From Escherichia coli O127:H6 str. E2348/69 (lineage in GTDB: Bacteria; Pseudomonadota; Gammaproteobacteria; Enterobacterales; Enterobacteriaceae): a DNA stretch of 64,000 bases. The notes under the pieces were generated by a model. It made no database searches, was not told the DNA's origin, and saw nothing but the letters and a program-made list of their open reading frames with translations. Shown piece after piece: positions 43,835-45,384 of the stretch. Numbering within the stretch: position 1 is the first letter of the stretch; each line of letters opens with the position of its first letter. The stretch is taken from the NCBI RefSeq assembly GCF_000026545.1, contig NC_011601.1; one strand, given 5' to 3'. Position numbers and translations under genes: made by a program.

Positions 43835-45384
43835 CTGTCTCTTGATCAGATCTCCTGATCAAGAGACTTCATCACCAGGTAACCCTCAACCATATCCTGA
43901 AGTCTGAACCAGCCATCCCACATGACTACCCAACCGGGGCGACCGGTGCGTTTGCTGTCATGCCATCGCCCCAGTTTCGCCAGTTTCAGACAGGCCCATT
44001 TCAGTGTCGGCATCTGTGACGGAAGCGGTTTTCCTTCCAGCTTAACCCACAGCAGTTTCCACTCTGTCGGCGTCAGTATTTTCTCACAGCTGTCATTTTG
44101 TGTTTCTTCACTGATACCGCCCTGCCGCAGGCCCAGCACCCGCACCGCGATAAACGCCTTGATAACCACCATGCGCTCGAGGTTATCCCGGGTCTGCATT
44201 CGCAGCGATTCCACACATGTACCACCACTTTTCCACGCCTTGTGGTATTCCTCTATCAGCCAGCGTCGCTCGTAATGGCTGACGATACGTCGCGCATCGG
44301 CGGCACTCGCCACTTTTTCTGACGTCAGCAGATGCCAGCAGGCGCCGTCCTCTGCCTGCTCCCGGCAACAGACATACGTGAGCGGGAGCGCCTGGCCGCT
44401 GTTGTCGGGATTTTTTATGCTGACTTCGCTGTAACTGATGAACATCCGGGCCTGGCGGGCTGCCCGCCCGCCTTTTTGCATCACATTCAGCGTGTGGCTT
44501 CCCGCGGTTGCCAGGACTTCCGGCAGTTCGAAGAGCTTGCCGGGTGCTTCTTCCAGCCGGCGATTCTGTGCTGCACGCACCACGAAGCGCTGCCCGTGGC
44601 TGACTTTATAATGCAGGTAATGCCAGATATCCGCTTCCCGGTCACAGACAGTGATTACCCGTTTCTGTATCTCCCCCAGCCGTTCGGCCATGCGCTCCGA
44701 AGCCTGCTGCCAGCGGTAACTTTCTTTTTCTTCATAGGGACGTTCTTTTCGCTGGTGCTTAACACCGTAGGTGTCCGTGGCACGACTCCAGCGCTGCTGT
44801 TCGATAAGACCGACTGGCAGGGCGCTGTCGGGGGCGTACATCAGGACAGAGTGAGCCAGCAGCCCGCGCGTCTTCGGGTTAGTGGTGGTATTCCCCAGGT
44901 CATCAGATGCCGTACTGTGACTGAAGTTAATGGTGGTGGTGTCTTCCAGCGCGAGGAGCAGCGGATGAGCCTCACATGCCCTTACAGTGGCGGTAAATCC
45001 GGCTTCGGCAATGGCTTGCGGGGACACAGACGGGTTACGTATCAGGCGGTACGCACCTTCAACCTGAGCAGTGGACTGGGATGATTTCACAATAGAAAGA
45101 CCTGCATGCTGAGCGAGAGAAGAGGCCAGTGACACAAGGCGTCGTGTACGACGCGGATCACCGAGACGGGCATGTCCAAACTGCTCGTTAGCCCATGAAT
45201 AACAATCAGAAAGTACCATAACAGACCCGAAGAAAATGAAATATAAGAGAAGATCAACAGGTGAGGAAAAAGTTCAAAAAATCGCTGCCGGGGAGGAAGG
45301 AAACTACCGGATGGAAAGAGTCCCCCTAAAGCAGACTGACAGACATCACAAATCCCCGGGTGGGGATTTGTGTATAAGAGACAG
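43835..45384 (-). mobile_element. IS4-family, IS50-like insertion sequence, copy 2 (1550 bp), inserted in ygfK
   Basis: Same termini and identical 457-aa transposase ORF as copy 1; perfect 9-bp target-site duplication. Confidence 0.92.
43846..45219 (-). CDS. IS50-like DDE transposase (457 aa), second copy
   Basis: Protein identical to the ORF at 19784..21157. Confidence 0.9.
   Translation of the reverse strand: MVLSDCYSWANEQFGHARLGDPRRTRRLVSLASSLAQHAGLSIVKSSQSTAQVEGAYRLIRNPSVSPQAIAEAGFTATVRACEAHPLLLALEDTTTINFSHSTASDDLGNTTTNPKTRGLLAHSVLMYAPDSALPVGLIEQQRWSRATDTYGVKHQRKERPYEEKESYRWQQASERMAERLGEIQKRVITVCDREADIWHYLHYKVSHGQRFVVRAAQNRRLEEAPGKLFELPEVLATAGSHTLNVMQKGGRAARQARMFISYSEVSIKNPDNSGQALPLTYVCCREQAEDGACWHLLTSEKVASAADARRIVSHYERRWLIEEYHKAWKSGGTCVESLRMQTRDNLERMVVIKAFIAVRVLGLRQGGISEETQNDSCEKILTPTEWKLLWVKLEGKPLPSQMPTLKWACLKLAKLGRWHDSKRTGRPGWVVMWDGWFRLQDMVEGYLVMKSLDQEI

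Follow-up and report, generated by a model that had tools for sequence, protein, structure and literature searches.

The described elements closest to the one reported here belong to the IS50 subgroup of the IS4 family, whose members measure 1350-1550 bp, produce direct repeats (DR) of 8-9 bp and share the end signature CW------Y---CA-A--W- (De Palmenaer et al., 2008, PMC2266710). For the comparison of termini, the IS50 inside end was taken from the mini-Tn5 end primer (PMC12310338), and the outside-end and mosaic-end (OE/ME) sequences from PMC3347997. The window analysed in this study is a 64-kb stretch of the chromosome of enteropathogenic Escherichia coli (EPEC) strain E2348/69, corresponding to positions 3,200,001-3,264,000 of NC_011601, the 2009 reference for this strain (window position +3,200,000, as inferred from the gap positions in PMC5685641). 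At 43835..45384 it holds a 1550-bp element inside ygfK, with its transposase gene on the minus strand, antisense to ygfK. This element is ISEc13, a member of the IS50 subgroup of the IS4 family; it is IS50-like in kind, and not IS50 itself.

The single long ORF of the element (43846..45219, minus strand) encodes a 457-aa transposase, and one such ORF in 1550 bp agrees with the size and coding content of the IS50 subgroup. Comparison with the Tn5 transposase structures gave E=6e-84 and 39% identity over 470 columns, the DDE residues D93, D193 and E323 aligning with D97/D188/E326 of Tn5. The Y-(2)-R-(3)-E-(6)-K (YREK) signature is present as Y316-R319-E323-K330 within HYERRWLIEEYHKAWK, and the protein scores 514 bits against the IS4-family transposase model NF033590 (transpos_IS4_3) of NCBIfam, for which the cutoff is 160. 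In RefSeq the product is named 'IS4-like element ISEc13 family transposase' (WP_000244358.1). At the nucleotide level the element matches the E2348/69 copies that RefSeq names ISEc13 at 100% and those from other E. coli at 99.8-99.9%, and ISEc13 copies share its 1550-bp length and 457-aa transposase. By a near-identity test IS50 proper is ruled out, given the 39% amino-acid identity to the Tn5 transposase. The first-pass annotation, which had called the element an IS50-like insertion sequence, was therefore right in kind, as the transposase match and the IS50-type ends indicate, and the exact name is ISEc13.

The ygfK copy begins with CTGTCTCTTGATCAG and finishes with TATAAGAGACAG. Its opening letters are CTGTCTCTTGATCAGATCT and its closing letters ...GTGTATAAGAGACAG. 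The left terminal 19 bp (CTGTCTCTTGATCAGATCT, 43835..43853) match the IS50 inside end at 19/19 positions and include two GATC (Dam) sites. The right terminal 19 bp (45366..45384; reverse complement CTGTCTCTTATACACAAAT) share 17/19 positions with the outside end and likewise 17/19 with the mosaic end, and the DnaA box TTATACACA is kept. Both CTGTCTCTTGATCAGATCTC and CTGTCTCTTATACACAAATC fit the subgroup end signature at positions 1, 2, 9, 13, 14, 16 and 19. To these likenesses with IS50/Tn5 may be added the common transposase fold family with its conserved DDE and YREK residues, the location of the transposase stop codon within the inside-type end, and a 9-bp duplication at the ygfK site, which falls in the 8-9 bp range of the subgroup.

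Several differences from IS50/Tn5 were also observed. The ISEc13 transposase has 457 aa compared with the 477-residue Tn5 chain in the PDB, and it lacks a Met at the Inh start position, where a Q aligns with residue 56. The duplications of ISEc13 vary from 8 to 10 bp, and its target preference is another one, with determinants lying outside the duplication. Both tips of ISEc13 carry subterminal hairpins: a perfect 13-bp stem with a 5-nt loop at the left (43837..43867; -21.3 kcal/mol, z = -5.1), and a perfect 11-bp stem with a 4-nt loop at the right (45347..45372; z = -5.5 on the minus strand), which overlaps the right terminal repeat. IS50 is not known to have such tip hairpins. Titration of the transposase and blocking of read-through are possibilities for their role. 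In the left-tip hairpin, terminal positions 3-15 recur as an inverted copy that faces inward. The GATC sites lie at 43844-43852, in the inside-type end, and at 45253-45256, about 35 nt before the start codon of the transposase gene, a placement that recalls, by analogy, the Dam control of IS50. Set against the named ISEc13 element, the ygfK copy is the same and only its site is unusual, being a half-site in a coding region with a 9-bp duplication.

The insertion in ygfK is of a simple form. The element is bounded by two copies of CCACCATGC, at 43826..43834 on the left and at 45385..45393 on the right, and the repeat is exactly 9 bp because the tenth base differs between the copies. Upstream lies a 5' fragment of ygfK (43150..43834, plus strand) comprising codons 1-228 and the first base of codon 229. 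Its ORF runs on to 43845 and encodes 231 aa ending ...LSTMPVS*, the last three residues (PVS) being supplied by the IS tip and the TGA (43843-43845) lying within the IS. Downstream, the 3' fragment (45394..47807, plus strand) holds the remainder of codon 229 through to the stop. The ATG at 45390, in the right copy of the repeat, starts an ORF of 805 aa (45390..47807) with the N-terminus MHGCPP. When 43150-43834 was joined in silico to 45394-47807, an uninterrupted frame of 3099 nt (1032 codons) resulted, its only stop being the terminal one; the protein sequence across the joint is ...TLSTM|HGCPPHEIEA....

The excised gene differs by 2 nt and 1 aa (A258T) from the intact 1032-codon ygfK (WP_000502455.1) of strain 2022H047, the nearest other complete genome, in which the ygfK site is empty. 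The restored 1032-aa product is thus homologous to YgfK over its full length, with one substitution relative to WP_000502455.1, and shows the domain order Fer4_20 (453-532), Pyr_redox_2 (552-839) and a C-terminal 4Fe-4S domain (~900-950); the insertion point lies upstream of these, in the N-terminal domain. The perfect duplication around 43835-45384 and the in-frame fusion of the flanking ORFs into about 1032 codons, both proposed in the first-pass annotation together with an alignment to an intact reference gene, are accordingly borne out.

A second ISEc13 copy lies on the minus strand at 19773..21322, in the araE-kduD intergenic region and in the same orientation as the ygfK copy, flanked by the 10-bp repeat GCCATGCGAC (19763-19772 / 21323-21332). 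The two copies, claimed earlier to be identical, have 0 mismatches over 1550 bp. These features point almost certainly to a simple transposition event, recent and specific to strain E2348/69, that placed ISEc13 in codon 229 of ygfK. By analogy with Tn5/IS50, the 457-aa DDE transposase would bind both 19-bp ends, synapse them and cut the element out in a cut-and-paste reaction, after which the two 3' ends would be joined to target phosphates at a 9-bp stagger and gap repair would leave the CCACCATGC duplication. That ISEc13 uses this chemistry, including a hairpin intermediate, is inferred from its homology to Tn5.

The age of the insertion was assessed against 5,426 complete E. coli genomes, using an 800-bp empty-site query. 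The empty ygfK site is contiguous in 5,168 of them. The left ygfK/ISEc13 junction was found in one genome and the right junction in three, all derived from E2348/69, and neither junction occurred outside E2348/69-derived assemblies in this set. One E2348/69 chromosome record, CP059840.2, is 100% identical over 7,550 bp and has the same ygfK insertion. Since the insertion is strain-specific among complete E. coli genomes and the site is empty in the nearest relative, the earlier suggestion of a recent event is supported, and on sequence comparison the insertion is evolutionarily recent and confined to the lineage of the isolate E2348/69. The presence of the right junction in all three E2348/69-derived assemblies indicates that it is older than the split of the laboratory stocks. 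It is very improbable that the insertion is old and common to a wider lineage: the araE-kduD copy and the ygfK right junction are indeed found in all three of those assemblies, but the three stem from one 1969 isolate, both junctions are missing from every other one of the 5,426 genomes, the ygfK copy matches its sibling at 100% identity, the 9-bp repeat shows no decay and the two ygfK halves bear no further lesions. In E2348/69 about 32 places match ISEc13 (30 chromosomal and 2 plasmid), which equals the maximum for any genome, the median being 1; a full-length copy is present in 873 genomes.

The DNA between the two copies (21323..43834; 22,512 bp) is absent from the records of 'E2348/69 variety 2' (LT827011.1) and EPEC1 (LT903847.1). 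The interval carries kduD, kduI, yqeF, yqeG, glyU, actS, xdhABC, ygeV, ygeW, dpaL, ygeY, hyuA, arcC, yqeB, yqeC, mocA and the 5' part of ygfK. Because glyU (26254-26327), a tRNA-Gly gene with anticodon CCC, is among these, 'variety 2' would be without the glyU tRNA gene. In both records the two ISEc13 copies abut (...GACAG|CTGTC...) with a 0-bp spacer, and their outer flanks are those of the window. According to PMC5685641, 150-174-nt Illumina reads were assembled against NC_011601 and the records represent the reference minus four gaps, of which gap2 is given in the supplementary text as 3221322-3243834 of NC_011601. This corresponds exactly to the unique DNA between the copies (window 21322/43834 + 3,200,000). 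The 22.5-kb deletion in 'variety 2', seen as zero coverage, is therefore credible.

Reads of 150-174 nt assembled on NC_011601 cannot distinguish one IS copy from two in LT827011.1/LT903847.1, and the abutted tandem dimer is probably an assembly artefact. For that reason a head-to-tail dimer made by the transposase, through precise excision of the DNA between the copies, was considered at first but rejected as the likely reading. RecA recombination between the direct ISEc13 repeats, with one copy left, is simpler and more probable. The arrangement resembles the IS-bounded deletions known between direct copies of, for example, IS1 or IS5, in that a simple insertion disrupts a gene and, in the stock 'variety 2', a direct pair of copies flanks a deletion. 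It differs in that those deletions leave one IS, whereas the deposited record has two abutted copies, for which reference-guided assembly is the simplest cause.

The same records bear on whether the ygfK insertion might itself be an artefact, a repeat copy misplaced inside the gene during assembly. About 30 identical ISEc13 copies in one genome are a classic source of misassembly, and the related record LT827011.1 holds just such an arrangement resembling a reference-guided artefact. Nevertheless, misassembly would not duplicate exactly 9 bp of unique target sequence, the same structure is present in two separately deposited assemblies (NC_011601 and CP059840.2), PMC5685641 reports that its Illumina data agree perfectly with the reference everywhere except in the four gaps, and one of those gaps ends exactly at an IS boundary, so that an artefact need hardly be entertained. 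Practically no credence can be given to the two copies forming a composite transposon on which the 22.5-kb segment with 5'-ygfK arrived as one unit: they are identical, directly oriented and 24 kb apart, but each has its own repeat (GCCATGCGAC at araE, CCACCATGC at ygfK) in place of a single shared outer duplication, the sequence inside and outside the pair is core genome, collinear with the IS-free chromosome of 2022H047 and about 99.9% identical to it, and removal of either copy gives back normal core-genome sequence.

With the insertion in ygfK taken as a simple transposition, its site can be compared with others. Flanking sequences were read for twelve more ISEc13 copies in other records, a small sample that represents eleven distinct sites. 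Exact repeats at 11 sites (ygfK and araE included) were of 8 bp in 8/11, of 9 bp in 2/11 (one being ygfK) and of 10 bp in 1/11 (araE); one further copy had a 9-bp repeat with one mismatch. When half-sites were aligned on the IS tip, C was found at each of positions -13 to -10 in 19-24 of 26, preceded by an A-rich stretch, and from this pattern the targets read as palindromes of the form AAA-CCCC-Y-(N8-10)-R-GGGG-TTT. Most of the surveyed sites are intergenic, lie just downstream of genes and are terminator-like. The ygfK site has the left arm only (ACCCTCT|CC...) and, as the other copies mostly have 8-bp duplications in palindromic intergenic sites, it is atypical for ISEc13. A scan of the 64-kb window for perfect CCCCY-N8-10-RGGGG sites found none.

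It is tentatively proposed, as a possibility that is somewhat doubtful at present, that ISEc13 picks two-fold symmetric AAA-CCCC-Y-(N8-10)-R-GGGG-TTT sites, the spacing of the arms setting a duplication of 8, 9 or 10 bp, and that ygfK represents a rare half-site event. The target preference of ISEc13 may so far have had no formal description; a literature search on ISEc13 returned incidental mentions only. A separate observation concerns the ISEc13 copy of plasmid pMAR2 (CP059841.1, 15027-16576), which lies between finO and hok. It has no target duplication, and on both sides a half-site of the consensus lies at the distance usual for the element. The lack of a duplication, despite a consensus half-site on either flank, suggests recombination between two earlier insertions.

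Downstream of ygfK the genes are tightly packed, as the first-pass annotation had described. The ygfK stop (47807) is followed after 2 nt by ssnA (47810..49138), then by ygfM (49189..49968) and xdhD (49965..52835), all on the plus strand. While ssnA and ygfM are intact, xdhD is a pseudogene: its codon 422 (51228-51230) reads TAG in place of the CAG of strain 2022H047, and RefSeq marks it 'internal stop'. This lesion had escaped the first-pass annotation. The 3' part of xdhD (52211-52565) also shows 15 substitutions in 355 bp relative to 2022H047, compared with about 1 per 3 kb elsewhere; by its sequence this cluster is probably a recombination patch.

As a consequence of the insertion, YgfK is cut short after residue 228 (plus PVS), and 1.5 kb of antisense-tnp sequence that is not translated now lies between the 3' 805 codons and the promoter and ribosome-binding context that served them. 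A polar effect lowering transcription of ssnA-ygfM-xdhD, as had been expected, is plausible, since a stop codon ends translation 11 nt inside the IS, the next 1.5 kb or so of antisense-tnp RNA would go untranslated, and the plus strand carries a hairpin and T-run. The latter, a terminator-like GC-rich hairpin GGCGGGCTGCCCGCCCGCC followed by TTTTT (44454..44477, plus strand) in the direction of ygfK transcription, comes from a consensus scan only, and its fold is no more stable than that of shuffled GC-rich sequence (z = -1.06). A promoter scan of the right IS end found no outward-facing promoter. Against polarity, the downstream genes may have promoters of their own, as xdhD is described as expressed from "its native promoter" in one of two preprints on this pathway (10.1101/2025.04.24.650524, 10.1101/2025.05.19.654654).

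The same two preprints identify YgfK as an NADPH-dependent 2,8-dioxopurine reductase that does not require selenate, and XdhD-YgfM as converting urate to 2,8-dioxopurine (10.1101/2025.04.24.650524, 10.1101/2025.05.19.654654). In the anaerobic urate pathway YgfK, annotated as a 'putative selenate reductase subunit', is the NADPH:2,8-dioxopurine oxidoreductase. Judged by the genome sequence, the first two steps of this pathway are independently broken in E2348/69 by lesions in one operon, the TAG in xdhD, which serves the first step, and ygfK::ISEc13. From the ISEc13 insertion in ygfK together with the xdhD nonsense codon, the strain is predicted to have lost the anaerobic urate pathway.

The insertion is already annotated in public genome records, and is a known element at a known position in a reference genome. 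In the RefSeq annotation of CP059840.2, both halves of ygfK appear as pseudogene fragments ('putative selenate reductase subunit YgfK') around the ISEc13 transposase gene. Literature searches on the accessions LT827011 and CP059840 found nothing. The insertion is of little consequence beyond strain bookkeeping. For transposon biology the target-site pattern of ISEc13 offers a modest starting point, and such a choice of target, if true, would explain how E2348/69 holds about 30 copies with few gene disruptions. For the organism, it means that in the prototype EPEC strain the anaerobic urate (2,8-dioxopurine) pathway, defined only recently, is hit independently at each of its first two enzymes, and that the whole 22.5-kb purine/urate cluster is gone from 'variety 2', a widely used laboratory stock and the parent of the effector-less strains EPEC1/EPEC0. 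The pathway lesions and the 22.5-kb loss are relevant to those who use E2348/69 in work on gut purine metabolism or colonisation.
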